Source of the DNA: Cytophagales bacterium
GTDB lineage: Bacteria; Bacteroidota; Bacteroidia; Cytophagales; Microscillaceae
Reading direction: 5' to 3'
DNA length: 64,000 nucleotides
Assembly: GCA_031425615.1 (NCBI GenBank)
Contig: JANPJR010000030.1
Span: 210,492-274,491 of the forward strand
Each line of letters starts with the position of its first letter. Position 1 is the stretch's first letter. Position numbers and translations under genes: made by a program. Below the pieces are notes generated by a model. It saw only the letters and a program-made list of their open reading frames with translations. It had not been told where the DNA came from and searched no databases. Of the stretch, positions 3,829-54,119 are shown in pieces.

Positions 3829-6396
3829 ATGTATTATACAAAAAAAAACATGAAAATATCAGAAACTTCATATCGTATGTTGTTTGTGTTTGTGTTTTTA
3901 TTTATTTTTATTGGGGGGAAAAATGAAATTTTTGCACAAAAAACTGCTACTCTTTGGGAAGATAAATTAAAATCAACCCTGAAAAATACAAAAGACCCTG
4001 AACAAAAATTGGTATTGGCGTGTGAAATAGCACAAGAAATGACTGAATATGACAACGAAAAAGCCTTTAAACTGATAGAAAAATACGAAAAAGAAATCAT
4101 CACTCAAAATTATAAAGAAGCACATATTGCATTGTTTTTGGCAAGAGGAGAAATATTACGTTTAAGAGGACGTGGCAGTGAAGCCATCAAACAACAAGAA
4201 AAAGCACTTGAAATTGCTAAAAAATTAAAAAACGATAAATTTATAAATAAAATTAAACGTGATATTGCCAATACACTTAGCAATCTTACACGATACAGCG
4301 ATGCCCAAAAAATATTAGAAAATGCGCATGAATGGTATAAAAAAAATGACCCTTATGGGCGTGATTGTGCAATATTGGTAAATTATTTAGCCATCAATAC
4401 GCTTAGACAAGGCAGATATACACAAGCATTAAGTTATAGCCAAGAAGCAAAAAAAATATTTGAAAATATACCAGACCTCAACAATCAAATCAAAATGTTG
4501 AACAATGTTGCCCTTATCCAAAAAAATATGGGTTTTAAACAAGAAGCATTGGAAAAATATTTGCTCGCCCTCCAACAACAAAGTCAAAGCAGGGAAAATC
4601 ACCGACAAATGGTTACGCTTTTGCTCAATTTGGGCAACCTTTATGTATCCCCTTTGGACACACTTAATTTTGATACCGCAGAAAATTCATACAAAAAAGC
4701 CATTAAAATTGCCATAACTATCAAAGATACCATGCAGATTGTGGCTATGTATGAGGCTTTTGCAAAATTTCATGCGTATAAAAATGATATTACAAAAGTA
4801 ACAAATTATGTAAAAGAAGGATATTTTTTTATCCAACAAACCAAAAACTATTTGGAAGAGGGTTATTACCTTATTCGTACTGCTGATGCTTTCCTAAAAA
4901 TGAGCATGCAAAACGAAGCCTTAAAAAATATAGAAAAAGCCCTTGAATCATTCAAAAAAAATAATGCAGAAGAAGCTATTATACAAGCATTGAGCAAATT
5001 AGCAATGTCTCTCAGCCAACAAAAAAATTTTAAAAACGCCCAAATATATGCCTTAGACGCTTGGGAAAGAGCAAGGAAAAATAATAACCAAATAATGCCA
5101 CAACTTTACTTGAATATTTTAGATAATTATATAGGGCTTGGCGAATTTGAAAAAGGAGAAGAATGGGGTATCATGGCAGAAAAAAAAATGTTGGAAGATA
5201 ACATCATTAATTTTGTGCAACATATTTATTTTTCGCTTTATGAATCAAATGTCAAACGAAAAAATTATGAAAAAGCATTGTATTGGCATGAAAAATATCA
5301 CAAAACATATAAAGCTAACAACCAACAAGATATATTAAAAAATATGCAAGAAATGCAAACCTTGTATAATTTTAAAGGACAAGAAAAAGAAAATGATTTT
5401 TTGAAAAAAATAAATGAACTTAACCAAAAACAATTAAAACAAAATAATATCGTCATATTTTTTATGGCGTTGTTGCTATTTGTTGTCATGATAGTAGGGT
5501 ATTTTTTATATAAAAATGGCAAAAAACTCAAAAAAGCAATGAACGTTATCCAACAAAATAATAATGAAATCACAGAACAAAACAACGAAATACAAACCCA
5601 AAAAGAACATTTAGATGAGGCTATGCAAGATTTAGAAAATCTTAACCAAGCCCTCAATATCCAAAATCAAGAACTCCAAACCCTCAATGATGTAAAAACA
5701 CGCATTTTTTCCATGATTTCACATGATATGCGTAATCCACTTGGCAACCTCAAAGCTGTACTTGAACTCTCGCAAACTGGGGCTTTACCCGAAAATGAAA
5801 AAGCTTTTTTATTTAAAAGGCTTACTATCGATGTAGAACGTGTATATGATTTTTTGAATACATTGTTGTTTTGGGCAAGAAGCCAAATGGAAGGTTTTTT
5901 TCTGCAAATGATACAGATACATGCCCATACAAATATTGAAAAAATACTCCATATCATAGAAAACCAAGCACAACAAAAAAGTATTAGCCTCAAAAATAGG
6001 GCATCTATTGATATTCTACTTACAACAGACAAGGATATTTTGAACGTGATTATTTTGAATTTGCTTACAAATGCCTTAAAATTTACTAAAAAAAATGGCA
6101 TCGTTTCTATTGAAGTAAGCCTAAAAAATGAAAATGTATTATTTACAATCAAAGATACAGGCATTGGTATTCCGTTGGAACATCAACCAAAAATCTTTGG
6201 TGTAAATAAATTTACAACTTATGGCACAAATAAAGAAAAAGGTTCTGGTTTTGGGCTTTCGCTTTGCAAGGATTTTGTGCAGTTGTTGGGCGGAAAAATT
6301 TATTTTGAAAGTGTAGAAAATCAGGGTACTACATTTTTTGTAGAAATTCCCCAATTCCCACAAAATAATTTTGATGAAGTAGGTTTGACCGAATAA
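3829..6396 (+). CDS. TPR-repeat sensor histidine kinase
   Basis: 855 aa. N-terminal hydrophobic segment, TPR-like repeats, internal TM ('IVIFFMALLLFVVMIVGYFLY'), coiled coil, H-box 'SHDMRNPL' and HATPase_c motifs ('LLTNALKFT','DTGIGI','GSGFGLS'). Confidence 0.85.
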   Translation: MYYTKKNMKISETSYRMLFVFVFLFIFIGGKNEIFAQKTATLWEDKLKSTLKNTKDPEQKLVLACEIAQEMTEYDNEKAFKLIEKYEKEIITQNYKEAHIALFLARGEILRLRGRGSEAIKQQEKALEIAKKLKNDKFINKIKRDIANTLSNLTRYSDAQKILENAHEWYKKNDPYGRDCAILVNYLAINTLRQGRYTQALSYSQEAKKIFENIPDLNNQIKMLNNVALIQKNMGFKQEALEKYLLALQQQSQSRENHRQMVTLLLNLGNLYVSPLDTLNFDTAENSYKKAIKIAITIKDTMQIVAMYEAFAKFHAYKNDITKVTNYVKEGYFFIQQTKNYLEEGYYLIRTADAFLKMSMQNEALKNIEKALESFKKNNAEEAIIQALSKLAMSLSQQKNFKNAQIYALDAWERARKNNNQIMPQLYLNILDNYIGLGEFEKGEEWGIMAEKKMLEDNIINFVQHIYFSLYESNVKRKNYEKALYWHEKYHKTYKANNQQDILKNMQEMQTLYNFKGQEKENDFLKKINELNQKQLKQNNIVIFFMALLLFVVMIVGYFLYKNGKKLKKAMNVIQQNNNEITEQNNEIQTQKEHLDEAMQDLENLNQALNIQNQELQTLNDVKTRIFSMISHDMRNPLGNLKAVLELSQTGALPENEKAFLFKRLTIDVERVYDFLNTLLFWARSQMEGFFLQMIQIHAHTNIEKILHIIENQAQQKSISLKNRASIDILLTTDKDILNVIILNLLTNALKFTKKNGIVSIEVSLKNENVLFTIKDTGIGIPLEHQPKIFGVNKFTTYGTNKEKGSGFGLSLCKDFVQLLGGKIYFESVENQGTTFFVEIPQFPQNNFDEVGLTE

Positions 6397-6620
6397 TTGT
6401 TTTATTTCACTACCACACACAAAATAGTATAAATTTCCAAGACTAACTTAAAAATTTCTTACTGCTATACAAATTTTGAAAAACACATTCAAAACGCAGG
6501 AAAAAGGTTTTTTAAATAATTTTTACTAAAAAATAATACATTTATTTGAAAAATTAACACAAATATTGTGTTTAACATTACTATCAGTTTGTAATTTTTC
6601 AAAAAATCAGGGTCAGACCT

Positions 6621-6703
6621 TCGTAAACTACGGTACAGACTCAATTTTTTGGAAAATGGTATTAAAATATTGTGTTTAAACCGCCCCAAAGCACTTTTTT
6701 TAA
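6621..6703. repeat. dispersed ~83-nt intergenic element, copy 1 (candidate sRNA/MITE-like)
   Basis: 'tcgtaaactacggtacagactcaattttttggaaaatggtattaaaatattgtgtttaaaccgccccaaagcacttttttt', ~75% identical to 37241-37321. Confidence 0.7.
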
Positions 6704-6746
6704 ATTCTAAAAAGATGTATAGTAGTAAGAAAAAATTAACCTTTTT

Positions 6747-7619
6747 TTAATCTAAAAACCTTTTTGTAATAGGTTGATACGTTTCTATGCGTCTATCACG
6801 TAAAAAAGGCCACACAGTACGATAATGCTCTATTTGATGGAGATCAAGTGTTTCAATATGGTGTAATTCTTCGGTGTGTGAGGCTTGAAAAACCACCGTT
6901 CCCATAGGATTGGCAACAAAAGAACCACCCCAAAAGTTTGTAATATCTTCCTTCCCTACACGATTGACTGACACCACATACACACCATTTGCTATCGCAT
7001 GACTGCGTTGCATGGTTTGCCAAGCGTTGTACTGCTCTTGATTTACGGTTTCGGGTGTGTCAAGTTCCCAACCTATCGCAGTAGGATAAAATAAAATTTC
7101 TGCTCCCATGAGTGCAGTAATGCGTGCAGGCTCAGGATACCACTGGTCCCAACAAATCAATACGCCAATTTTTGCAAATTTTGTTTGGAAAACTTTATAA
7201 CCGCCATCACCTTCAGTAAAATAAAATTTTTCATAAAAACCTGGGTCGTCTGGAATATGGTGTTTGCGATATTTACCCAAATATTCACCATCAGCATCTA
7301 TTACAATAGTAGTATTGTGATAAAGTCCTGCAGTGCGTTTTTCAAATAAAGACGCAATAATCACAATTTCCAATTCTTTGGCGATACGCTGAAAAACCTG
7401 CGTACTTTCGCCTGCTGGAATTGCTTCACCAAGCGCAAAATTTGCGTGGTCTTCCACATTACAAAAATAAAGGCTTCTAAATAATTCTTGTAAACATACG
7501 ATTTGTACGCCTTCTTTGGCAAGTGCGTAAATACGCTCAATCGTTTTTGCGAGATTTTGGTTGGTGTCTGCTGTGCAAGCAAGCTGAATAATGCCTATTG
7601 ATACGTTTTTTGGTTTCAT
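6747..7619 (-). CDS. aguB: N-carbamoylputrescine amidase (CN-hydrolase family)
   Basis: 290 aa with a carbon-nitrogen hydrolase fold and the catalytic Cys context 'GVLICWDQWYPE'. Confidence 0.78.
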   Translation of the reverse strand: MKPKNVSIGIIQLACTADTNQNLAKTIERIYALAKEGVQIVCLQELFRSLYFCNVEDHANFALGEAIPAGESTQVFQRIAKELEIVIIASLFEKRTAGLYHNTTIVIDADGEYLGKYRKHHIPDDPGFYEKFYFTEGDGGYKVFQTKFAKIGVLICWDQWYPEPARITALMGAEILFYPTAIGWELDTPETVNQEQYNAWQTMQRSHAIANGVYVVSVNRVGKEDITNFWGGSFVANPMGTVVFQASHTEELHHIETLDLHQIEHYRTVWPFLRDRRIETYQPITKRFLD

Positions 7620-7629
7620 TTTTCAGAGA

Positions 7630-7676
7630 ATTATGGATTATAGATTATGGATTATGAATTGTAGATTAGGATTATT
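7630..7676. repeat. heptamer-periodic tandem repeat (GGATTAT type) abutting aguB start
   Basis: 'ttatggattatagattatggattatgaattgtagattaggattat'. Confidence 0.8.
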
Positions 7677-7843
7677 TTTTATTTATAAAATGCAAAATAA
7701 AACAATTTTATTAAAACCAACAACTAAAAAGAGTTCCCTAACCCCCAAAGAGAATAAATAGCTTTTAACTAAAAAAACCAATAGCTGAAAAACTCACAAC
7801 TTTAAAAAACTGGGAAAACTTACAACTGAAAAAACTTACAACT

Positions 7844-8914
7844 TTACAATTTTACCTCAATTTGTTCTTTTTCAAATAAGTCTTTTAAAATTTTTTGGAG
7901 ATTTTTTGCATCAATATTTTGATTTTGCATCAATACCCCAAAAGGCATCCTTGCCAACATAGAATTTTCAATCCCTAACATATCTGCAAGTTTATCACCC
8001 AAAAGATACCGCACAAGGCTTGGTACCATAATAGGAGGAATTTGTTTACTTTGTGAGGATAATGTTTCCAACAATATTTTTGTAAGTTTGAGTGTGTGCG
8101 GTGCTGGGTGAAATTGTCTTGTTGCTATGCTATTATCAAGCCAATAAGCAGATTTTGCAGTAAGCGGTAAAAGGTCATTTCCCAAACCCAAACAATGCCC
8201 AATATAAGCCCAAAGGTGCAAAAAATTTTCTGTTTGTGTATTATCAATGTCATAACCCAATGCGCGTAAACCACGCACACAAATCCACGAAAACGCAAGG
8301 TTTGTACCTGCCATATCTTCCTGATTGATAGGAATGCCCCAATCCATATTCCACTCAGGCAAATGTATAAGTCTTGCTCGTACAATAGCATGCATAAACC
8401 GCACTTTTAGAATACTCACAAGCCCTTTATTTTCAGGCAAAAACGCATCTTTTTGGGTAACATCTATTACAAATTGGGCAGTTTCAAGCAATCTTTTTTG
8501 GGTATCATTGCCCAATCTTTCCGAAAAATCTAAAACCCTTGCCCCATCTGCCCCTGCATAACAATAAGGCAAAGACAAATAACCCAGCATAGAAAGCAAT
8601 GCAGGCATATATTGGGCAAAAAATGCCTGTCCTTGTTGGATTTTCTTTTGGTCAAATTGTGGGGGAAATGTGATAAATTCACTAAAAAAATTTAAAAAAT
8701 AAGTACACATTTCCGCAGGAAAATCATTAAAAAAATCGTGTTTTTTAGTAATACCTAAAATACCTTCATTACAACGCAATTCATTGAGCAAAGCCCTAAA
8801 TTCCGCCATTTTATTTTTTTCAAAAACAACCTTTATAATTTCATCAACCAGAAAATCACCTTTTTGACGCATTTCAGGCAATATTTTGGGGTAATTGGGG
8901 AAAGTATTTTGCAT
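7844..8914 (-). CDS. DUF2236 / MpaB-RoxA-like oxygenase family protein (tentative)
   Basis: 356 aa with an 'RxxHxxVR'-type motif ('KVRFMHAIVRARL') reminiscent of DUF2236. Confidence 0.4.
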   Translation of the reverse strand: MQNTFPNYPKILPEMRQKGDFLVDEIIKVVFEKNKMAEFRALLNELRCNEGILGITKKHDFFNDFPAEMCTYFLNFFSEFITFPPQFDQKKIQQGQAFFAQYMPALLSMLGYLSLPYCYAGADGARVLDFSERLGNDTQKRLLETAQFVIDVTQKDAFLPENKGLVSILKVRFMHAIVRARLIHLPEWNMDWGIPINQEDMAGTNLAFSWICVRGLRALGYDIDNTQTENFLHLWAYIGHCLGLGNDLLPLTAKSAYWLDNSIATRQFHPAPHTLKLTKILLETLSSQSKQIPPIMVPSLVRYLLGDKLADMLGIENSMLARMPFGVLMQNQNIDAKNLQKILKDLFEKEQIEVKL

Positions 8915-8947
8915 GGATTGGTTATGATTTATATAGTTTAAAGTTTT

Positions 8948-9139
8948 TTACTGCGTGTTATTATCTTCATCAATAAGCCCCTTACTTATTGCATTTCGGA
9001 TAAATTGTTTTTCATAATGTCTATTTCGTCTATTTTTTTTTGCATCAACTCTTTTAGCATTACGTTTATCTATCACTAATTCATTCAACCTATTGAGGTC
9101 TTCTATTTTTGTGATGTCATTTGGAGAACTTCGTTTCAT
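8948..9139 (-). CDS. small basic hypothetical protein (63 aa)
   Basis: Trimmed from the 121-aa ORF to the internal Met ('MKRSSPNDITKIEDLNRLNELVIDKRNAKR...'). Lys/Arg-rich with no recognisable family. Confidence 0.3.
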   Translation of the reverse strand: MKRSSPNDITKIEDLNRLNELVIDKRNAKRVDAKKNRRNRHYEKQFIRNAISKGLIDEDNNTQ

Positions 9140-9298
9140 GGTTTTGTATATTTTTTGAATAACAAAGTGTATTAGAATAAGTTTTACAATATAAAAAAAA
9201 TAGTGTTTTATAGAAAAAAATCCAAAAAAACTGAAAAATTGCGGTTTTGGTGTTATTTTTTTACTTTTGCACAAACATAAATTTTTTAATCCCCAAAA

Positions 9299-9916
9299 AT
9301 GGAAACTACACACACAAATATTGCCTTACCTGTCATGGAAGCCTTTTACACATTACAAGGTGAAGGATTTTTTCAGGGAAGTGCTGCGTATTTTATACGT
9401 TTGGGCGGTTGTGATGTGGGTTGCGTGTGGTGTGATGTGAAGGAATCTTGGGACGTGAATGCACACCCAAAGATCTCAATAGAAAATATCGTAGCACAAG
9501 CCCAGATGCACAAAGCACGCCTTGCAGTTATTACAGGCGGTGAGCCACTAATGCACAATCTTGATACATTGTGTGAGGAATTGCATAAGGCAAATTTTCA
9601 TATCAATATAGAAACTTCTGGCACTTATCCGATGTCGGGCAATATTGATTGGATTTGTTTTTCCCCAAAAAAATTTAAAAAACCTTTACCCGAATTTTAC
9701 GACATTTCTCACGAACTAAAAGTAATCATTTACCACAAAAGCGATTTGGCTTGGGCAGAAACTTTTGCAAAAAAAATAAACCCAAACTGTAAATTGTATT
9801 TGCAACCTGAATGGGATAAATCCAAAGAAATGTTGCCTTTGATAGTTGATTATGTAAAAGAAAATCCACATTGGCGTATCAGTTTACAAACGCATAAATA
9901 TTTGGATATTCCGTAA
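9299..9916 (+). CDS. queE: 7-carboxy-7-deazaguanine synthase (radical SAM)
   Basis: 205 aa with QueE-type cluster motif 'CDVGCVWCD' and family-typical length. Confidence 0.85.
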   Translation: METTHTNIALPVMEAFYTLQGEGFFQGSAAYFIRLGGCDVGCVWCDVKESWDVNAHPKISIENIVAQAQMHKARLAVITGGEPLMHNLDTLCEELHKANFHINIETSGTYPMSGNIDWICFSPKKFKKPLPEFYDISHELKVIIYHKSDLAWAETFAKKINPNCKLYLQPEWDKSKEMLPLIVDYVKENPHWRISLQTHKYLDIP

Positions 9917-9970
9917 TTTAAGTTGTCAGTTTTTTAGTAATCAGTTTTTTCAGTTGTTAGTTTTATAAAA

Positions 9971-10474
9971 ATGAATAAAAATGAAGTTTTAATGTCTTTT
10001 TTGCCTCAATTATTAAAAGATAATTTTAATAAAGATGATTTTACATTTGAAATTGTGCCAAATAGTTCTCCTATTTGTATAGAAATCAAAGGCAAGTTTT
10101 TGGTGGGAATTTGTGAATTTTTATATGAAAATGCACAATGTTATTTTGATACATTGGCTTGTTTGACTGCATTGGACAATGGTAAAACCGCCAATATAAT
10201 GGAAGTATGGTATCATTTGTTTTCGCTTCCGCACCAACATAGTTTGGCGTTGCGTGTGATATTACCCAGAGAAAACCCTAAAATAGAAACTGTAAGCCAT
10301 ATTTGGCAAACTGCAAATTGGCACGAAAGAGAGGCTTTTGATTTGTTGGGTGTTATTTTTGAAAATCACCCTGATTTGAGAAGAATTTTGCTTACTGCTG
10401 ATTGGGAAGGCAATCCTTTGAGAAAAGATTATGAACAACAAGAAAAATATCATGGAATTACAGTGAAGTATTAG
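9971..10474 (+). CDS. NADH-quinone oxidoreductase subunit C (30-kDa subunit)-like protein, orphan
   Basis: 167 aa with the Complex1_30kDa core motif 'TANWHEREAFDLLGVIFENHPDLRRILL'. No other nuo genes are adjacent. Confidence 0.6.
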   Translation: MNKNEVLMSFLPQLLKDNFNKDDFTFEIVPNSSPICIEIKGKFLVGICEFLYENAQCYFDTLACLTALDNGKTANIMEVWYHLFSLPHQHSLALRVILPRENPKIETVSHIWQTANWHEREAFDLLGVIFENHPDLRRILLTADWEGNPLRKDYEQQEKYHGITVKY

Positions 10475-10527
10475 AAAAGTTCAAAAGGTTCAAAGTTTAA
10501 GGTTCAAAAGGTTCAAGGTTTAATTAA
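10475..10527. repeat. GTTCAAAGG-family short tandem repeat
   Basis: 'aaaagttcaaaaggttcaaagtttaaggttcaaaaggttcaaggtttaa' directly after the NuoC-like stop. Confidence 0.7.
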
Positions 10528-10562
10528 GTGGTCAAATTTTTTGTTTTTACTAAAAAAAACTA

Positions 10563-10650
10563 ACAACTGGATTGACTAAAATTACTGAAAAAACCGAAAA
10601 CTGAATTGACTAAAATTACTAAAAAAACCGAAAACTGGATTAACTAAATT
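10563..10650. repeat. ~37-bp tandem repeat (about 2.4 copies)
   Basis: 'aactggattgactaaaattactgaaaaaaccgaaa' repeated ('aactgaattgactaaaattactaaaaaaaccgaaaactggattaactaaatt'). Confidence 0.7.
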
Positions 10651-10791
10651 AACATTAACAAAAAATTTTGAAGAAATAAAGGGGTAAAACGTTACAAATC
10701 ATCTGGTAATCTCGTATCTCTTAAAAACATTAAATAGTTAAAAAAAAATAATTTGTATCTTAATATTTTTTTAAATAATTTTCTTAAAATC

Positions 10792-11616
10792 ATGCGTTAT
10801 TCAAAAATTCTTTTGGTTGTGTTGTGGATTTCGTTAAGTGCGATGCTGTTTGGTGATAAATATAGAACAGTAAAAAACGATATATTTCAAAAAGGTGAAC
10901 ACATTGAATACACCGTACAATATGGTTTTATCAAGGCTGGCGTGGCAGAAGTAGATGTGAGTTATAAACATTTTTTGCTTAATAATAGGGTTTGTTATAA
11001 AATAGATGTAACAGGAAAAACCATTGGTGCTGGTGGTGCAGTAGTGCGTGTAAATGACACTTGGCGTACATATATGGATACTTCTGCGTTTTTGGCACAC
11101 CGTTCTTACCGCAAATTGGAAGAAGGGAATTATAGACGTGAGGAACTTTCGGACTATAACCCTACAACTAAAAAAGGCATTATGAAATTTACAGAATACA
11201 GCGAAGGCGAACCCAAAGAAAAACACCGCAAAAACGAAAAGCCTTTTACAATTCCTGACAATGTGCAAGACATGGTAAGCGGTTATTATTTTTTGAGGAC
11301 ATTGAATTTTGATGAAATGAAAATGGACGAAATAGTGAAAGTATCTGGTATGCTTGAAGATGTAAGCTATGACCTTAATATTCGCTATAAAGGAAAGGAA
11401 ATTGTAAAAACTAAATTTGGTAAAATGCACGCACACAAACTTGTGCCTATCATGCCTGCAAACCAAATGTTCAGTGGTGAAAAATCTATTCGTTTTTGGG
11501 TTTCTGATGACAAAAACCGCATTCCTATACGTATTGAAGCTGATATGTGGATTGGAAAAGTAGTAGTGGAATTGAGTGATTATAAAAATGTAAGACACAA
11601 ATTTAATTTTAAATAA
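10792..11616 (+). CDS. DUF3108 domain protein
   Basis: Start moved to Met 'MRYSKILLVVLWISLSA' (signal-like). DUF3108-like N-terminus 'GEHIEYTVQYGFIKAGVAEVDV'. Confidence 0.55.
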   Translation: MRYSKILLVVLWISLSAMLFGDKYRTVKNDIFQKGEHIEYTVQYGFIKAGVAEVDVSYKHFLLNNRVCYKIDVTGKTIGAGGAVVRVNDTWRTYMDTSAFLAHRSYRKLEEGNYRREELSDYNPTTKKGIMKFTEYSEGEPKEKHRKNEKPFTIPDNVQDMVSGYYFLRTLNFDEMKMDEIVKVSGMLEDVSYDLNIRYKGKEIVKTKFGKMHAHKLVPIMPANQMFSGEKSIRFWVSDDKNRIPIRIEADMWIGKVVVELSDYKNVRHKFNFK

Positions 11617-11664
11617 AAGTAATCGTATTGAAAAGCTACTTTTAATTTTAAAAAAAACACGTAA

Positions 11665-11712
11665 TAAAAAAAACATATTTTAACTAAAAATATGTTTTTT
11701 TTGTTTTTTTTT
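11665..11712 (+). terminator. rho-independent terminator after DUF3108 gene
   Basis: Stem 'aaacatattt-taactaa-aaatatgttt' followed by T-runs. Confidence 0.65.
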
Positions 11713-11830
11713 TGAAAAATTTAATATTCCCAAAAAAAGAACTATTTTTGTATAAATTTTCAAAAACAACTTTTAAAAGTTATTTTTTTTAAAAATTTAC
11801 TTTTTATTATTTAATTCATTAACATAATTT

Positions 11831-12448
11831 ATGTTTACTGGTATTGTTGAAACGCTTGCAAAAGTGGTACAAATTCAACCTGAAAATGGGAATATACATT
11901 TTACCCTACACAATGACATTGCACACACATTCAAAATAGACCAGAGCATATCGCACAATGGCGTTTGTCTTACGGTGGTAGCTATAGACAAAACCAACAA
12001 TACTTATACTGTAACTGCCATTGCTGAAACTTTGCAAAAAACCAATCTTGGACAAGTCCAATTACATGACTTTGTGAATATAGAACAAAGTATGCAATGG
12101 AATGGACGCATAGATGGACATATCGTACAAGGACATATAGACCAAATAGCCCAATGTGTAATGGCTCAAGAAGACGCAGGAAGTTGGCGTTTTGGATTTC
12201 AATATGACCAAAAAACCCAAAACATTACAGTAGAAAAAGGTTCTATTTGTATTAATGGTGTAAGTCTTACAGTTGTAGCATCAAAACCAGATTATTTTTC
12301 AGTTGCTATTATCCCTTATACTTACGAACATACCAATTTTAAAAACTTAAAAGTTGGTAGTATAGTTAATATTGAATTTGATATTTTGGGAAAATATATC
12401 CAAAAATACCTTCAAAATATGAACATGGTATTGACACCAAAAGACTAA
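11831..12448 (+). CDS. ribE: riboflavin synthase alpha subunit
   Basis: 205 aa starting 'MFTGIVE', with two lumazine-binding repeats. Confidence 0.9.
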   Translation: MFTGIVETLAKVVQIQPENGNIHFTLHNDIAHTFKIDQSISHNGVCLTVVAIDKTNNTYTVTAIAETLQKTNLGQVQLHDFVNIEQSMQWNGRIDGHIVQGHIDQIAQCVMAQEDAGSWRFGFQYDQKTQNITVEKGSICINGVSLTVVASKPDYFSVAIIPYTYEHTNFKNLKVGSIVNIEFDILGKYIQKYLQNMNMVLTPKD

Positions 12449-12532: not shown

Positions 12533-13291
12533 ATGAAAAATCTTAATTGTATGATAATAGATGACGATGAAGTATGTAGAAGTATTTTGTCGCATTATAT
12601 CAAAAAAACTGAAAATCTTACCCTTATTCATTCCTCAGGAGATGCAATAGAAGGTTATAATTTGCTCAAAAAAGAAGGTCAAAATATTGATATTCTTTTT
12701 TTAGATGTAGAAATGCCAGAAATGTCTGGTTTTGATATTATTAGAATAATGGAACAAGACCCCAAAAAATACATTATTATTACCACAAGCAGAGAGCATT
12801 ATGCAGTAGAGGCTTTTGAATTAAATGTTGATGATTATTTGCTCAAACCAGTCAATTATCCAAGATTTTTAAAGGGTATTGAAAAAATACAAAAAAAAGC
12901 AACCGCAGAAGAAGCTACAATCACAGAAGATATTTTTGAATCCAAATCTTTTTTTGTACGCTCCAAACATAGTATTGTGCGAATTGTTCCCGAAGATATC
13001 TGTTTTATAGAGGCTTTTGCAGATTATATATTGATTTACACTATGAATCCACACTATTCTCCCAACACTAAAACTGAACGAAACCAAAAGTATATAGTGC
13101 ATATCACCCTCAAATCACTTGAAGAAAAATTAGAAAAATATAAATATTTGGTACGTGTGCATAAGTCTTATGTGATAAATATTCATAAAATGGAAAGTTT
13201 TAAAGATGGAATGATTTATACCAATGGTGAAGAAATTCCAATTGGTAGAAATTATAAAACTGATTTTTTAGAAAGAATAAAACCTATTTAA
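12533..13291 (+). CDS. LytTR-family response regulator (REC + LytTR DNA-binding)
   Basis: 252 aa with receiver Asp pocket 'IIDDDE...LDVEMPEMSGF' and a C-terminal LytTR domain. Confidence 0.85.
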   Translation: MKNLNCMIIDDDEVCRSILSHYIKKTENLTLIHSSGDAIEGYNLLKKEGQNIDILFLDVEMPEMSGFDIIRIMEQDPKKYIIITTSREHYAVEAFELNVDDYLLKPVNYPRFLKGIEKIQKKATAEEATITEDIFESKSFFVRSKHSIVRIVPEDICFIEAFADYILIYTMNPHYSPNTKTERNQKYIVHITLKSLEEKLEKYKYLVRVHKSYVINIHKMESFKDGMIYTNGEEIPIGRNYKTDFLERIKPI

Positions 13292-18461: not shown

Positions 18462-18866
18462 ATGAAAAAAGACATAGAATTTCCACACGTTACAGGCGTG
18501 CATGTAGGTATTACACAAGACAGCGAGGGTTTTTGGGAAGTTTTTTTGATAAATGACAATGATTTTGTCCTACAAAATATATTGATTACTTCCACAGGGT
18601 ATTTGGCAGAAGACGACAATCCAAAAAAAATGCAACAACAAACCTCTACCTTGCGACACGCTGTTCCGATTTTGCAAGCAAATGAATACGCCAAAATTGA
18701 AATGATTGATGCAGAGGTTTTTCACCTTTGCAATGAATATTGGATAAGTTATTATGTAGATGGAAAAATTTATGATAAAAAATTTATTTTTATGCCTAAT
18801 ACAATTTCCAAAGAAAATTTTGTTTATATTGAAAATTTAGAGAAAGAAGGCGTATTACATAGCTAA
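18462..18866 (+). CDS. hypothetical protein
   Basis: 134-aa ORF with good coding look and a terminator downstream. No recognisable family. Confidence 0.45.
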   Translation: MKKDIEFPHVTGVHVGITQDSEGFWEVFLINDNDFVLQNILITSTGYLAEDDNPKKMQQQTSTLRHAVPILQANEYAKIEMIDAEVFHLCNEYWISYYVDGKIYDKKFIFMPNTISKENFVYIENLEKEGVLHS

Positions 18867-18893: not shown

Positions 18894-18936
18894 CAAAAAA
18901 ATCTTGCATTATTCAAAATGCAAGATTTTTTTTTAT
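18894..18936. terminator. bidirectional rho-independent terminator
   Basis: Hairpin 'atcttgcatt-attcaaa-aatgcaagat' flanked by an A-run and T9. Confidence 0.8.
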
Positions 18937-18954: not shown

Positions 18955-21900
18955 CTATACTTTTTGGAGGCAAGCAAGCCATTGTTTTGTATTTTTGTTT
19001 TCATCACGCAAAGGGTAGAAAAAAGTACGGAATTTGAGTTTTTCACCTTCTTTTCCTACATATTTTACCACTTTTGCGGTAGAGATTCCTTGTTGTATTT
19101 GTGCTTGCCATTCTTGGTATTCATCACTTTCTTTTTCAGAAATGTCTAACAAATCTGTAAAAGGACACGCTAATATTTCACCTTCTTTGTAGCCCAACGC
19201 CCAAATAGCTTGTTGGTTGATGCGTGAAACTGTGCCTTCCATATCCACTTCTATAATAATAAGGCTACTTTCAAGTGCTTTTACCCTGTCCTCTGCCATA
19301 GACACAATCGTTGCGGAAGGCGTATTAGGATAAGGTGGTGGCATGAGATGATTGAACAGATGTACGATTTCTGTAACTTGGTTATCTTTGTTGATAATAG
19401 GGATAAAACTTGTATGATAAAATGATTTTTCGCCTTTTGTAGAGATAAACGCAAGTTCTTCCACATTTTGGGCAATACCTACTTTTACGCCTTCCCACAT
19501 TACTTTAAAATCTTTGCTTTCAGCAAAGTTTTTATCTAAAAAATCCGTATAAGTTTGCCCTATAAGTTCAGTACCTTGCAGGCGTGTAAGTTGCAAAAAC
19601 TTTTGGTTTGCACTTAGGATTTCGCCTTCGGGAGATATTTCCAACACCGCAAAAATGGCATTGATTTTATCAAAAAGTTCTACGAGTTCTCTTTCTCTTT
19701 GGTTAAGCATATTGGCAGTTTGTTCCAAAAATTCTTTTTTTCGCACCAAATCTTCTTGTATAATTTCCAAATCTGCAAGTTTTTCATTGAAAGAATTTTG
19801 TTTTTCCTGCCAATGTGTAGCAGTTTTTTCTTCAATGTCAGCGATTTGATTTTCTAAGGATTGTATGCTGATGGTGTCTTTTTGGTGTTTTTCTTTGAGT
19901 TGTGCAATTTCAAGCAATAATTCTGCAATTTCAGGTATTTCTATGAAATTATCAACAGTATTAGGCACAATATTTTGAGAAATATTATCAGTTTGTTGTT
20001 TTTGTTGGTTTAGCGTTTCGTTGAGGGTTAATATTTGGTTTTCAAGGGCATTTATTTTTGCTTGGTAGTTTTGATTTTCAGTTTGTAAGTTGGTTATTTC
20101 TTGTGTTATTTGAGTATTTTCAGCTTTTTTGGCTTGTATTTTTAAGAAATTTTCTTCCAACTCGTTATTTTTTTGTTTCAATTCTTCTACAAGTTCTTTA
20201 AGGTCTTGTAATTCTTGGAGGTTATCTTCTTTTGGTGGTTGATTTTGTTGTAATAGATACTGCGAAACGAGGAGTTCGTCCTCTTTTTTGCGTAGTTTTT
20301 GGATTGTATTTTCAAACTGTGTAATGAGGTCTTTATATTTTTGTTCAAAACTTTGTAATTCTTGGCTTAGGAGTCCATTTTTTTCCAACGTTTCGTCCAA
20401 ATCAAGCCTTAAATAATGCGTTTCTTTTTCAAAAATTTCATTTTTAGTAGCAATTTGTTGTGAAATTTGGACAATAAGTTGTTCTTTTTCTTGTATATCG
20501 CTAAGGATATTTTGCAATTTTTCTGCCTGCCAAGTATTTATTTTTTCCAATTCGTTATATTTTTCGGTATTTTCTTGTGATTCCTTAAGCATATTCTGCA
20601 ATTTTTCTGCCTGCCAAGTATTTATTTTTTCCAATTCGTCATAATTAGACACAATTTTTTCCAATTCATGTTGTAGTGCAATTATTTTTTGTTGTGCTTC
20701 GTGCAATTCTTGTTCCCAATTTTCAGGTATTGCATACGCTTTTTCTTGCCAAAAATTAAGATTTGCCTGCAAATCATTGATGTATTGTTGCATTGCCTCT
20801 TTTTCTTGTGCTTTTTCTTCTTCTTGTATATTTTCTTGTGGCGTACTTTCTGTGGTTGTATTCGCAATTTTTTCAGAAAGTTCTGTAACCATGTTTTGCC
20901 AAAATGTAATATTTAATTGCAATTCATGTATATAGTGTTTTGTGGCATCTTTTTCGTCAGACGTTTGGTTTTCAGAGAGTTGTATTTTTGAAATTGCATT
21001 TTTGAGGTTGCTTATTTCCTCGTCTTGTTTTTCCAAAATATCATTTTTCCATTTGAGGGCTTCTTTTGCGATAGAAACATCATTATTTTTCTTACTAATA
21101 AGGTCTTCAAAACTGTTATTTTTTTGAATTAACTCATTTTTTTCCATTTCAAGGCTCAAATTTTGAGCTTCCAACGCTTTTAGTTTCTCCAAATATATTT
21201 TTTCCAAATCCACATTATTTTCTGCTTGTGATTGTGAAGTAATTATGTCTACGATATTTGGGGTATTTTTTGGTTTTTGAATATTTATTGTTGGTCTATT
21301 TTCTTCATCATCAATATAATAGGGTTCCAATTCTTCTGCTTGTTGTTGCAGATTTTTGGCTTGAATTTCTGCTTGTAGTTTTTGATTTTCTTCTCTAAGG
21401 ACTTTTATTTCTTTTTGTTGGTCTTTATAAATTTCAGATTGTTCAAAATTATCCATCAAAATCTCTTTTGTTTTTTGAGCATTCAACAAACTTTGCAAAG
21501 ACGCAGAAATATTGTGAGAAGCTCTATCCAAAAAAATCAAAAAACGAGGCATCAATTTATCCAATGTGCTCAATTCTATGACACCACTTACAGTTTTGTT
21601 GTATGCCAAAGGCAATACTACCATATAATTGGCTTTTATTTTGCCCAAAGACGAATTTACTTCGGTTTCTATTTCGTCCAAACACAACATTTCTTGCGAT
21701 TTGACTGCCTGCCCCACAAGCCCTTCCCCTATTTGGAACTGTGTGCGTTCCATTGTTTCCAACGTACAAGCATAACCTGCGGTTGCTTGCACCATATTTT
21801 TATCGTGATTGACCACAAAAAAAGCACCATGTATTGCACCTAATAAGCGTGCAAGGTATTGGATAAGGTTTTCAGAAAATTTTTTTGGTGTATTTTCAAA

Positions 21901-22092
21901 ATTATTACGCAATACTTCATCAAGTTTGCTCAAATTTACATCAAGCCACATTCTATCCTCCATTTTTTTCCTTTCTTCTTGAAAACCCTGTATCAAGGCT
22001 TTATATTCGGTGTAAGGCACGCTTATTTTACCATCTTGGTTGATGTCGGTGCTATCATTAGAGAGTTTTTCAGTCGTTTGTGGCGTTTCCAT
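18955..22092 (-). CDS. GAF / long coiled-coil / 2xPAS signalling protein without output domain
   Basis: 1045 aa. N-terminal GAF-like domain, ~500 aa of E/Q/K/L coiled coil with 28-aa tandem repeats, and two C-terminal PAS-like modules ('LEISPEGEILSANQKF','IIEVDMEGTVSRINQQA'). Confidence 0.8.
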   Translation of the reverse strand: METPQTTEKLSNDSTDINQDGKISVPYTEYKALIQGFQEERKKMEDRMWLDVNLSKLDEVLRNNFENTPKKFSENLIQYLARLLGAIHGAFFVVNHDKNMVQATAGYACTLETMERTQFQIGEGLVGQAVKSQEMLCLDEIETEVNSSLGKIKANYMVVLPLAYNKTVSGVIELSTLDKLMPRFLIFLDRASHNISASLQSLLNAQKTKEILMDNFEQSEIYKDQQKEIKVLREENQKLQAEIQAKNLQQQAEELEPYYIDDEENRPTINIQKPKNTPNIVDIITSQSQAENNVDLEKIYLEKLKALEAQNLSLEMEKNELIQKNNSFEDLISKKNNDVSIAKEALKWKNDILEKQDEEISNLKNAISKIQLSENQTSDEKDATKHYIHELQLNITFWQNMVTELSEKIANTTTESTPQENIQEEEKAQEKEAMQQYINDLQANLNFWQEKAYAIPENWEQELHEAQQKIIALQHELEKIVSNYDELEKINTWQAEKLQNMLKESQENTEKYNELEKINTWQAEKLQNILSDIQEKEQLIVQISQQIATKNEIFEKETHYLRLDLDETLEKNGLLSQELQSFEQKYKDLITQFENTIQKLRKKEDELLVSQYLLQQNQPPKEDNLQELQDLKELVEELKQKNNELEENFLKIQAKKAENTQITQEITNLQTENQNYQAKINALENQILTLNETLNQQKQQTDNISQNIVPNTVDNFIEIPEIAELLLEIAQLKEKHQKDTISIQSLENQIADIEEKTATHWQEKQNSFNEKLADLEIIQEDLVRKKEFLEQTANMLNQRERELVELFDKINAIFAVLEISPEGEILSANQKFLQLTRLQGTELIGQTYTDFLDKNFAESKDFKVMWEGVKVGIAQNVEELAFISTKGEKSFYHTSFIPIINKDNQVTEIVHLFNHLMPPPYPNTPSATIVSMAEDRVKALESSLIIIEVDMEGTVSRINQQAIWALGYKEGEILACPFTDLLDISEKESDEYQEWQAQIQQGISTAKVVKYVGKEGEKLKFRTFFYPLRDENKNTKQWLACLQKV
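20511..20640. repeat. intragenic 84-bp tandem duplication (28-aa coiled-coil repeat)
   Basis: 'gcaatttttctgcctgccaagtatttattttttccaattcgt' at 20514 and 20598. Encodes 'YNELEKINTWQAEKLQN(M/I)L...' twice. Confidence 0.85.
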
Positions 22093-52910: not shown

Positions 52911-54110
52911 TTATTGAATAGGAATATCAAAAATTTTTGTTAAGTCAAAATTAATATCGCTTTTTTTTGTAATGTTAAAGATTTGTTGAGGTGTATTATT
53001 TGGATAACCTAAATCACTTAAATTAAGACGTAAAAAATTACAAACTTTGTTAACATGAATTTTCAAAGATTCAAGAATTGCATTGTTGTTTGTATCATAA
53101 CTATCCGAAAAAATAGATTGAATTACCAAATTTGTGGATTTGTTTACTTTTTCTTCTTCATCTTCGTTTAGATAGGTAAAACTATGTCCTGAATGCAACC
53201 AAAAATAATTTGTAAAGATATTTCTGTCATGGATTTTCAATTTTTCTCGTATTTCCGTATACCTATTTGTGGGCTCTACGTTAATCAAATACAACTTTAT
53301 AGAAAATTTGAAATTTTCATTTTTAATTTCTTCAACAAAAAAATTGTAAATTTCAGAGGGTAAATTTGGATTTCTCGTATATTTTTCTTCATACCCAACA
53401 AAAACTACAAGTTTAAATCCCTTATCTAATTTTTCATTATGTAAAATATTTTTCAACATTGGGATAGTATTTTTTTTTATTACATATTCATAATCCTTTT
53501 TGCCTTCAAAATTTCCACCAAAAAAATAATTATCAATTATAACCATTTCGTTACAAAAATGCTTATAATCTCTTAAACTCTCCCAATCTTCAAAAGCATT
53601 ATGTTTTGGCATAATTGGGTCTATATTGAATAACATACTTTTAAACCAAAAACCAGTATGTTGAAAATCTAATAACATATTATCAACATTGATAAATAAA
53701 ATACCATGTTTTTTTGTTAAATTTTGGCATTCTTCATTTGATTTTTCCAACAAAAAAAAAGAAAATGATGTTACTTGTTTGGGTAGTGGTAAAGTTTCAT
53801 CAAAATCTCCAATCCGTTTGCCAATATCCTGAGTTATTTTTTTGGATATTTGATTCAATTCATAATTGCTTTTTTCATTTTCTTCATCAAATTTTTTTTT
53901 GTCAGATAAAATGTAAATTCTCTTTGTTCCAAATGACTGAAAAAAAGTCGCAACTTGCATTTTATGTTTTGTGTCAGCAAAATTATTTGATTGTGTTTCA
54001 CTCAATAAACTTTCAAGAATTATGTCATTTAAAGTTTCCCTGCCAAGAAGTTTTTTTAACTTTTTCAAACTTTCTATGTCAGAAAAAATAGTTATTCTGT
54101 TTTGCATCAT
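52911..54110 (-). CDS. hypothetical protein, partner of upstream AAA ATPase (candidate effector)
   Basis: 399 aa starting 9 bp after the ATPase stop on the same strand. No recognisable family. Has Asn/Lys-rich composition atypical of the housekeeping genes. Confidence 0.55.
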   Translation of the reverse strand: MMQNRITIFSDIESLKKLKKLLGRETLNDIILESLLSETQSNNFADTKHKMQVATFFQSFGTKRIYILSDKKKFDEENEKSNYELNQISKKITQDIGKRIGDFDETLPLPKQVTSFSFFLLEKSNEECQNLTKKHGILFINVDNMLLDFQHTGFWFKSMLFNIDPIMPKHNAFEDWESLRDYKHFCNEMVIIDNYFFGGNFEGKKDYEYVIKKNTIPMLKNILHNEKLDKGFKLVVFVGYEEKYTRNPNLPSEIYNFFVEEIKNENFKFSIKLYLINVEPTNRYTEIREKLKIHDRNIFTNYFWLHSGHSFTYLNEDEEEKVNKSTNLVIQSIFSDSYDTNNNAILESLKIHVNKVCNFLRLNLSDLGYPNNTPQQIFNITKKSDINFDLTKIFDIPIQ

Positions 54111-54119
54111 GTAGTATTT

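Follow-up and report, generated by a model that had tools for sequence, protein, structure and literature searches.

A stretch of 64,000 nucleotides from an uncultured Cytophagales bacterium (GenBank assembly GCA_031425615.1, contig JANPJR010000030.1, positions 210,492 to 274,491 of the forward strand), called here the window and numbered from its first letter, contains a complete gene on the minus strand (18955..22092) that encodes a protein with sensor domains at both of its ends, a GAF domain at the N-terminus and two PAS domains at the C-terminus, and with no catalytic or DNA-binding domain. Because such a domain is missing, any signal received must exit through protein-protein contacts. 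In relatives of the organism the gene is directly followed by a gene for a PP2C-type serine phosphatase, and the protein is read here, with confidence that is evenly divided for and against, as a dimeric sensor or scaffold that regulates such a phosphatase by protein-protein contact. The gene is an uninterrupted open reading frame (ORF) of 1045 codons from an ATG start to a stop codon at 18955-18957, in a window of 33% G+C, and its initial METxQ is common to the window protein and its orthologs.

Sensor domains at both ends and no output domain

The N-terminal domain was recognised by the Pfam model GAF_2 (PF13185) at residues 68-176 (21565-21891), with 30.4 bits against a cut-off of 28.6. As a check on this borderline call, residues 22-235 were modelled with AlphaFold from a 30-sequence alignment, which gave a predicted local distance difference test (pLDDT) score of 91.9 and a fold with an alpha/beta core between an entry helix of 37 residues and a long exit helix. 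Foldseek matched this model to the solved GAF domains of PtsP, Lcd1-cAMP, Nlh2 and PDE2A (E 8e-9 to 1e-6) and fRMsr; the top 50 matches in the PDB were essentially all GAF domains, and the leaders had TM-scores of 0.6-0.72 (target-normalised). Taken from Pfam, the model and Foldseek, the GAF module spans residues 27-215 (21448..22014, minus strand) and comprises a long N-terminal helix (27-63), the alpha/beta core and the start of the exit helix.

At the other end of the protein, the Pfam models PAS_9, PAS_4 and PAS each match twice, at residues ~806-917 and 938-1044 (PAS_9, PF13426, 60.2 bits, two stretches), and the NCBIfam model sensory_box (TIGR00229) matches residues 938-1040 with 34.6 bits. 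The two domains are placed at residues 815-917 (19342..19650) and 945-1044 (18961..19260), both on the minus strand. A full-length AlphaFold model made from seven sequences is of low confidence overall (pLDDT 60), with both PAS domains at pLDDT 70-85, and its fold matches in the PDB are tandem-PAS proteins only (MmoS, ARNT/HIF, CLOCK/BMAL1, DosP and PpsR). The best structural matches to residues ~806-1045 are the PAS-A/PAS-B tandems of MmoS, ARNT/HIF, CLOCK/BMAL1 and PpsR (Foldseek E 5e-12 to 1e-10); they differ from the window protein in sequence, with only 9-16% identity, and in carrying bHLH, HTH or kinase outputs. Homo- or heterodimerisation is a common function of such tandems. Inspection of the PAS domains by eye revealed no cofactor motif.

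An earlier note on this DNA, made from the sequence alone, had described a GAF / coiled coil / PAS-PAS layout with no effector domain, and both descriptions are borne out by the profile, model and fold searches. Neither Pfam, read down to E<=10, nor NCBIfam found a kinase, cyclase, phosphatase, MCP-signal or DNA-binding model in the protein, the remaining matches being below threshold, and HisKA, HATPase, GGDEF, EAL, HTH, PP2C and MCP-signal were likewise unmatched in sequence and profile searches of the PDB. A cryptic output domain was sought with Pfam, NCBIfam, phmmer against the PDB, a family profile against the PDB, the full-length AlphaFold model with Foldseek, and PADLOC; these returned only GAF, PAS and generic coiled coil. 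Membership in several known classes was considered as well. For a histidine kinase, no HisKA (DHp) or HATPase_c domain appeared at E<=10, and residues 182-813 are plain helices. For a methyl-accepting chemotaxis protein, no MCPsignal match was obtained, and tblastn of the window with CheR and CheB found nothing. The note's term 'anti-sigma-like' finds no support: Pfam and NCBIfam contain no match to an anti-sigma domain (RsbW-type HATPase, zf-HC2 or RskA), and no sigma factor lies among the ten flanking genes scanned. An ATPase of the SMC/Rad50 type was rejected, the TIGR02168 match being 21.8 bits against a cut-off of 567 and covering the coil only. Pfam shows no receiver (Response_reg) domain of the FrzS/AglZ type, the N-terminal domain being a GAF, and neither a transmembrane segment nor HAMP or REC was found with Pfam and NCBIfam. 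The protein is cytoplasmic and soluble.

The protein family

The exact window protein is present in an NCBI-derived collection (P0001), and the same word-indexed search returned six relatives of the same kind: five full-length orthologs of 1079-1423 residues and a shorter variant of 820 residues (P0007) that appears to have no first PAS domain. Below them come hundreds of proteins that share the GAF only, mostly hybrid kinases of the HAMP-GAF-HisKA-HATPase-REC type. In an exhaustive hidden Markov model search of 1.84 billion representatives, about a dozen clusters at 50% identity score as true members. Among contigs of one GTDB genome per species, near-full-length relatives occur only in metagenome-assembled genomes (MAGs) of Cytophagales (Microscillaceae, Bernardetiaceae and 'Cytophagaceae'). 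Metagenome contigs were also searched with the family alignment; among the matches listed there were GAF-only similarities at 23-32% identity and no family members. Sixteen other long-coil members, including L006, L007, L008, L010, L011, L014, L022, P0242-P0247, P0249 and P0251, were scanned with Pfam and have GAF and PAS matches and nothing else significant; GAF_2 exceeds its cut-off in 14 of the 16 (30-45 bits), falls below it in L022 (18.7 bits) and is not reported in P0251.

The GAF module is the best-conserved region of the family. Between the window protein and its closest relative P0002 the identity is 89% in the GAF module, 59% in the coil and 89% in the PAS-PAS region, and with distant orthologs the corresponding values are 54-61%, 25-32% and 32-36%. 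The nearest GAF homologs outside the family belong to the HAMP-GAF hybrid kinases (CHASE3/HAMP-GAF-HisKA-HATPase-REC), at 24-33% identity over ~200 residues. These kinases share the GAF, including the long pre-GAF helix with a conserved W, whereas the window protein has none of their transmembrane segment, HAMP, HisKA, HATPase and REC parts.

A second group of relatives consists of the short output-less (HAMP-)GAF-PASn proteins of Bacteroidota (P0008, P0010, P0011 and a 707-residue protein of Hugenholtzia roseola), labelled 'methyl-accepting chemotaxis protein' or 'PAS domain S-box protein' by their sources. They resemble the window protein in the type of GAF, in having PAS after GAF and in the absence of an output; they differ in having three or four PAS domains, in a short 'QEEELRQNMEELQATQEE' connector instead of a coil of 400-1000 residues, and in the absence of the two conserved coil motifs WKxxEI and KKEDELLVSQY described below. 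In P0011 and other members of this short subfamily, 'AQEEE(L/M)RQNMEE(L/M)QATQEE' stands right after the GAF; it may be a methylation helix, and it is absent from the window protein.

The individual parts (GAF, PAS, coiled coil, tandem duplication) are ordinary, and output-less PAS/GAF proteins are common. What is undescribed in the searchable literature is an architecture that separates a GAF from a PAS tandem by a coil of 400-1000 residues and, in Cytophagales, the conserved pairing with a paralogous GAF-PAS-PP2C phosphatase.

A phosphatase gene follows the family gene in relatives

An all-against-all comparison of the ORFs at 13 family loci revealed one recurrent neighbour only, located directly downstream on the same strand. 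Its product clusters with the family through a GAF of its own and is, by Pfam, a GAF(-PAS)-SpoIIE protein of 590-617 residues, that is, a PP2C-type serine phosphatase, with the metal-binding motifs VDCTGHG, TDGY.DQFGG and DD.LV discernible by eye. The phosphatase gene directly follows the family gene in at least 13 related loci. The gap from stop to start is 13-19 nucleotides (nt) in L007, L010, L011, L014, L160 (P0003) and L165, 24 nt in L161/L162 (P0004) and 63 nt in L008; in L165 the upstream ORF, a putative family member of 840 residues truncated by the contig end, stops 14 nt short of the gene for the phosphatase P0145. At L004, L009, L012 and L013, too, the next gene encodes the phosphatase. 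Genes of the short GAF-PASn subfamily are often followed by a GAF-PP2C gene as well, a shorter one in L017, L018 and L023. In the cultured Hugenholtzia roseola DSM 9546 (L168, 4839-8752, KE383878.1), the gene of the 707-residue GAF-PAS protein (4839-6962), whose GAF module has 35% identity to that of the window protein, is followed after 38 nt by a gene for a GAF-PAS-SpoIIE protein (WP_027002287.1), and this species is a possible experimental model for the short version of the pair.

In a neighbour-joining tree of the GAF regions, the family GAFs and the phosphatase GAFs form two clades with roughly parallel branching. Because members without the linkage branch off within groups of linked ones, the pair is old and its linkage the ancestral state; the tree implies that the linkage was lost at least two or three times, and the family GAF would be an ancient paralog of the phosphatase GAF. 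A mirror-tree correlation of the two proteins was dropped, since shared species phylogeny alone would produce it. In some proteins GAF, PAS and SpoIIE are fused in one chain (P0062).

Several related arrangements were seen. Cyclobacteriaceae, Roseivirgaceae and other Bacteroidia carry a GAF-only ORF of ~260-300 residues right upstream of an ORF of 1136-1216 residues with a GAF and a C-terminal PP2C (L038, L044, L045, L047, L051, L053, L054, L056, L057, L060, L064, L066 and L071; at ~7500-12100 in each locus, and at ~1460-5950 in L060). A metagenomic operon (L166, 4137-12229, JGI Ga0377235_000062) has the order CheR / P0011 / CheR / CheB / GAF-only / GAF-PAS-SpoIIE and joins a methylation-type adaptation set with a PP2C output; P0011 is an output-less HAMP-GAF-PAS-PAS protein of 793 residues, the GAF-only protein has 231 residues and the GAF-PAS-SpoIIE protein 870. 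Upstream of the P0003 pair, L160 contains a second, divergently oriented phosphatase gene of the 7TMR-DISM-SpoIIE type (5191-7407, minus strand), with genes for a TPR-HisKA-HATPase kinase and a stand-alone receiver next to it. These genomes abound in PP2C genes (4502 matches at E<=1e-20).

The clade of the window protein

Within its own clade the window gene is separated from any phosphatase gene, and the phosphatase nevertheless appears to have been retained. The assembly that encodes P0002 (GCA_013297825.1, contig JAAFIN010000139.1) also encodes, on contig JAAFIN010000064.1, a GAF-PAS-SpoIIE protein of 587 residues (P0138). A protein of the same length and 83% identity to it, P0136, is found, like P0001, only in the NCBI collection, and we infer that it is plausibly the window organism's own copy of the phosphatase.

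A number of observations weigh against the proposed link to a phosphatase. The window gene stands alone among housekeeping genes, and a tblastn search of the 64-kb window with four PP2C proteins and a small GAF protein found only the GAF of the gene itself. Linkage is absent in the window and in L002, in a separate clade formed by L003, L005 and L006, and in L022 and L163; such unlinked members may have changed partner or function. The two GAFs, taken to be paralogs, are only ~30% identical, no closer to each other than to the GAFs of the HAMP-GAF hybrid kinases. No gene for a STAS protein or an anti-sigma (RsbW-type) kinase was seen beside the pairs at L160, L161, L168 and the other pair loci inspected. 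The attribution of P0136 to the window organism is itself indirect, the full-length model has the low overall confidence given above, and full-text literature searches returned no paper on the family or the gene pair and no experimental work on any member.

The earlier note had also suggested that the protein could be part of a partner-switching system. This idea gains indirect support, from the relatives only, through the adjoining genes for PP2C/SpoIIE phosphatases, the kind of enzyme with which partner switching begins. In the window no PP2C is encoded in 64 kb, and the ten flanking genes scanned (12.5-27 kb) include no STAS or anti-sigma kinase domain. A scaffold, another of that note's suggestions, would agree with what was observed.

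The coiled coil and its conserved islands

Between the GAF module and the PAS tandem lies a helical, heptad-periodic region at residues 182-813 (19654..21549, minus strand), defined by the full-length model, periodicity and composition. The model contains six helices (182-259, 295-412, 423-512, 516-614, 622-705 and 720-813) joined by proline-containing linkers (~260-294, 413-422, 513-515, 615-621 and 706-719). A Fourier test against shuffled sequences, which replaced an uninformative heptad score based on a/d positions, detected a hydrophobic periodicity of 3.5 residues in five of the six helices (z=2.4-4.1) and none in the GAF core or the PAS region. Residues 216-795 are rich in E, Q, L, K, N and I, with one Gly and ten Pro per 580 residues, and residues 182-813 match coiled-coil proteins only in searches of the PDB and NCBIfam. 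The heptad coiled coil put forward in the earlier note is thereby upheld by periodicity and model; its length, estimated there at ~500 residues, is rather ~600-630 residues, or 60% of the protein.

Two short islands within the coil are conserved. The first, 'WKNDILEKQD' (residues 348-357; 21022..21051, minus strand), contains W348 and K349, which are invariant in the seven-sequence alignment, and the motif WKxxEIxRQD was present in all 15 family members examined. The second, 'KKEDELLVSQYLL' (residues 602-614; 20251..20289, minus strand), lies right before a Pro-Pro break and has K602, E604, D605, E606, V609, Q611, Y612 and L614 as invariant residues; its strict pattern KKEDELLVSQY, starting at residue 602, was found in 13 of the 15, the phosphatase-linked clade included.

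Across the family, 405-948 residues were measured between the end of the GAF module and the first PAS domain, and the distance runs from ~400 to ~1030 residues when L007 is counted. With a 2.5-fold change in length and with insertions that are not multiples of a heptad, a rigid helix transmitting a signal from GAF to PAS is hard to reconcile. The coil has the features expected of a dimerising spacer or scaffold in which particular sites serve for docking or as hinges.

Proposed mechanism and its precedents

GAF and PAS sensors flanked by long helices usually form coiled-coil dimers, and the window protein would probably dimerise through its coil. Its most likely partner would be the ~590-residue GAF-PAS-PP2C serine phosphatase (SpoIIE/RsbU-type) encoded directly downstream of orthologs. 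Contact with the phosphatase might be made through the GAF module, the putative paralog of the phosphatase GAF and the most constrained part of the protein, or through the PAS tandem, and binding would set the dimerisation and activity of the phosphatase in response to one or two ligands. The coil would serve as a dimerising spacer of variable length with two conserved docking or hinge islands, and would not be a rigid signal wire. Functionally, the protein would be comparable to RsbT acting on RsbU or RsbQ acting on RsbP.

In Bacillus subtilis, rsbT and rsbQ are located immediately upstream of rsbU and rsbP. The relatives show the same arrangement, a gene for a protein other than a phosphatase right upstream, on the same strand, of a gene for a PP2C phosphatase with sensor domains. 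RsbT has a GHKL-type kinase fold and RsbQ is an alpha/beta hydrolase; unlike them, and with no homology to either, the family protein consists of a GAF, a coil and PAS-PAS, the window gene is not adjacent to a phosphatase gene, and the interaction is a presumed one.

Other elements of the proposal have precedents in the literature. Partner-switching cascades are set off by PP2C phosphatases that have PAS, GAF, REC or HAMP domains at the N-terminus and become active when these domains and the coiled-coil linkers dimerise; for RsbU the trigger is the binding of its partner protein RsbT, and phosphatases with GAF or PAS N-termini such as OsaC, RsbZ and RsbP are switched via dimeric sensor domains and coiled-coil linkers (PMC12143880). 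The putative partners of the family (P0136, P0138 and P0121-P0153) have the GAF-PAS-SpoIIE architecture and are in this respect like OsaC of Streptomyces coelicolor, RsbZ of Clostridioides difficile and RsbP of B. subtilis, whereas the window protein has no PP2C domain and corresponds to the sensor half without the enzyme. Architectures with PAS and GAF domains only are thought to signal by protein-protein interaction (PMC5847659).

Alternative explanations

The coil invites an explanation in which the protein is a cytoskeletal or positional scaffold, forming filaments or polar or septal assemblies in a filamentous or gliding cell. Much as in FrzS and AglZ or in coiled-coil-rich proteins, the role of the GAF and PAS ends would be to adjust assembly or bring in cargo, and the phosphatase would be one client or unrelated. 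A heptad coil that makes up ~630 residues and 60% of the protein, varies freely in length and keeps two internal islands is what such a scaffold could look like, and the confinement of the family to Cytophagales (Microscillaceae, Bernardetiaceae, 'Cytophagaceae') and a cargo protein of the type IX secretion system (T9SS) in the host point the same way. FrzS and AglZ of Myxococcus xanthus provide the precedent of a non-catalytic signalling domain on a long coiled coil; they act by localisation and recruitment rather than catalysis in a gliding bacterium, FrzS as a localisation beacon (PMC1974792, PMC9811614). The two proteins differ from the window protein in having a (pseudo)receiver instead of a GAF and no C-terminal PAS, and in belonging to another phylum; no sequence or domain relation to them was found, REC included. 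Moreover, the ten flanking genes (12.5-27 kb) include no motility or division genes, and the phosphatase is the only conserved neighbour in relatives. A positional scaffold is thus a rather unlikely account of the protein, and one that is compatible with regulation of a phosphatase and not exclusive of it.

Just as doubtful is a reading in which the protein, a sensor without output, signals through some other partner, for instance a diguanylate cyclase, a histidine kinase or a response regulator; the adjacency to the phosphatase gene in the sister clades would then be historical, and the window clade would have been rewired once the adjacency was lost. The linkage is lost throughout the window clade, the GAFs most similar to those of the family belong to HAMP-GAF-HisKA-HATPase-REC hybrid kinases, an orphan REC-LytTR regulator is encoded ~6 kb away (12533-13291), and the operons of distant output-less relatives contain CheR and CheB genes in addition to one for a phosphatase (L166). 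On the other hand, a phosphatase ortholog is kept in the genome of the closest relative and is highly conserved, with 83% identity between P0136 and P0138 compared with 66% for the coiled-coil protein; no unlinked locus has an alternative conserved neighbour; and the GAF module and the two islands are the same in members with the linkage and in those that lack it. Regulation of a phosphatase by the dimeric sensor is preferred to either of these accounts.

A further explanation concerns the repeats inside the coil. An in-frame tandem duplication of 84 bp occupies 20476..20643 on the minus strand; Tandem Repeats Finder reports it at 20486-20643 with period 84, 1.9 copies and 90% match. Unit 1 encodes residues 484-511 (20560-20643) and unit 2 residues 512-539 (20476-20559), and each 28-residue unit corresponds to four heptads. 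The units are identical at 68 of 84 nt (81%) and 19 of 28 residues, with nine amino-acid differences, so that the duplication reported in the earlier note is real and in frame, and its 28-residue repeats are not exact. Exact identity is confined to a core of 43 nt (20597-20639 and 20513-20555) that encodes ELEKINTWQAEKLQ; in 200 shuffled versions of the gene, not one exact repeat of even 20 nt arose. The related 'YI(N/H)(D/E)LQ.N..FWQ' repeats mentioned in that note were recovered by self-comparison as an older, diverged pair, 'KDATKHYIHELQLNITFWQ' and 'KEAMQQYINDLQANLNFWQ' (residues ~379-402 and 429-452; 20737..20958, minus strand), which is spaced by 50 residues, is identical at 11 of 24 positions and contains YIHELQLNITFWQ and YINDLQANLNFWQ, respectively. 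P0002, 66% identical to the window protein and the one close relative in the collections with which copy numbers could be compared, has a single 28-residue unit and three copies of the YI(H/N)(E/D)LQ unit at 53-residue spacing. P0003 contains three or four units of 69 residues, and P0005 and P0006 have no repeats.

These repeats might suggest a contingency locus, in which the number of 84-bp units changes often by slipped-strand mispairing or recombination and yields length variants with different signalling within a population. In its favour are the tandem units with their 43-nt exact core, the different copy numbers of both repeat families in the window protein and P0002, and the independent repeats of 53 and 69 residues in other lineages. 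Only two copies are present, however, and their divergence (81% nt identity, nine amino-acid differences) indicates an old, fixed duplication and no active hot spot; P0005 and P0006 do without repeats altogether. As the duplication is in frame and adds four heptads, it changes length and cannot switch the gene on or off. A contingency locus is therefore very improbable, and the slippage proposed in the earlier note finds support on an evolutionary scale only, with no sign of rapid, phase-type variation. As coiled-coil proteins usually do, the family gains and loses repeats from lineage to lineage, and the best explanation of the 84-bp duplication is an ordinary lineage-specific change in the length of the coil spacer.

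Finally, decay of a hybrid histidine kinase or phosphatase into a non-functional protein stripped of its output domain, an idea suggested by the likeness of the GAF module to hybrid-kinase GAFs and by the fusion of GAF/PAS with SpoIIE in some relatives (P0062; ORFs of ~1136 residues), can hardly be upheld against an intact 3.1-kb ORF with a proper stop codon and a terminator-like hairpin after it, strongly conserved termini (89% with P0002) and an output-less architecture kept across orthologs of 27-72% identity in many MAGs.

Surroundings of the gene in the window

The gene is apparently transcribed alone, because it is bounded by a convergent ORF of 134 residues and a terminator-like palindrome on one side and, on its upstream side, by an AT-rich spacer of 450 bp and a divergent gene for an MscS-type channel. 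The palindrome (18895..18932), identified in a terminator scan, lies 23 nt past the stop codon between the convergent genes 18462-18866 (plus strand) and 18955-22092 (minus strand); it has a 16-bp stem with flanking A- and T-runs and is usable from both strands. Sigma-70-like promoter matches numbered 24, compared with 19.4 +/- 4.5 in shuffled sequences, and are thus not in excess, the consensus used not being the Bacteroidota one. The ten flanking genes scanned are mostly of the housekeeping type (lpdA, an Mrp/ApbC-type ATPase, ndk, MscS, rpsP, an SDF (dicarboxylate) symporter and HPPD); the others are the orphan REC-LytTR regulator, a lipoprotein-like ORF with no assigned function and the 134-residue ORF. 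The last of these (18462-18866, plus strand) has no Pfam match, and no histidine kinase is encoded among the scanned genes adjoining the REC-LytTR response regulator (12533-13291, plus strand). In PADLOC, no defence family matched the window protein or P0136.

Three further loci of the window were noted. A protein of 833 residues (30750-33251, plus strand) that matches Band_7/SPFH, a Vault_3 repeat and, with 109 bits, the shoulder domain of the major vault protein looks like the product of a bacterial MVP-like gene. The minus-strand region 52911-56033 is a candidate two-gene anti-phage defence locus: it comprises an ATPase of 637 residues (54120-56033) of the AAA_15/AAA_21/DUF3696 type, with NsnB (162 bits) and PDC-M55A (128 bits) as best PADLOC matches and weaker ones to AbiLi, AriA, GajA and PtuA, followed by an ORF of 399 residues (52911-54110) with no Pfam or PADLOC match. 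Lastly, a protein of 1855 residues (37621-43188, minus strand) combines NHL repeats and Ig_7 domains with a CHU_C type IX secretion signal; this T9SS cargo protein identifies the host as a T9SS-bearing member of the Bacteroidota, in line with the Cytophagales relatives.

Implications

If the link to the phosphatase fails, what is left is one more uncharacterised PAS/GAF protein of an ordinary sort, whose coiled-coil repeat is of a common type. At the other extreme, and with little confidence, it may represent a new kind of signalling scaffold in which a two-ended sensor on an evolvable coiled-coil rod positions and gates a PP2C phosphatase, integrates two ligands and couples partner switching to cell architecture in filamentous or gliding Cytophagales, the islands docking further partners. 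Such a rod would be ~60-150 nm long, as estimated from 400-1030 helical residues if fully extended.

What provides the input of PP2C partner-switching phosphatases is a current question. The inputs known so far (RsbT, RsbQ and stressosomes) are mainly those of Firmicutes, and the genomes of Bacteroidota contain SpoIIE-type phosphatase genes in very large numbers. The gene pair of an output-less GAF-coil-PAS protein and a GAF-PAS-PP2C phosphatase is a testable candidate for a new input module in Bacteroidota. The 2.5-fold range in coil length and the in-frame duplications, with the ends of the protein conserved, argue that very long coils between sensor domains are spacers or scaffolds and not rigid transmitters.

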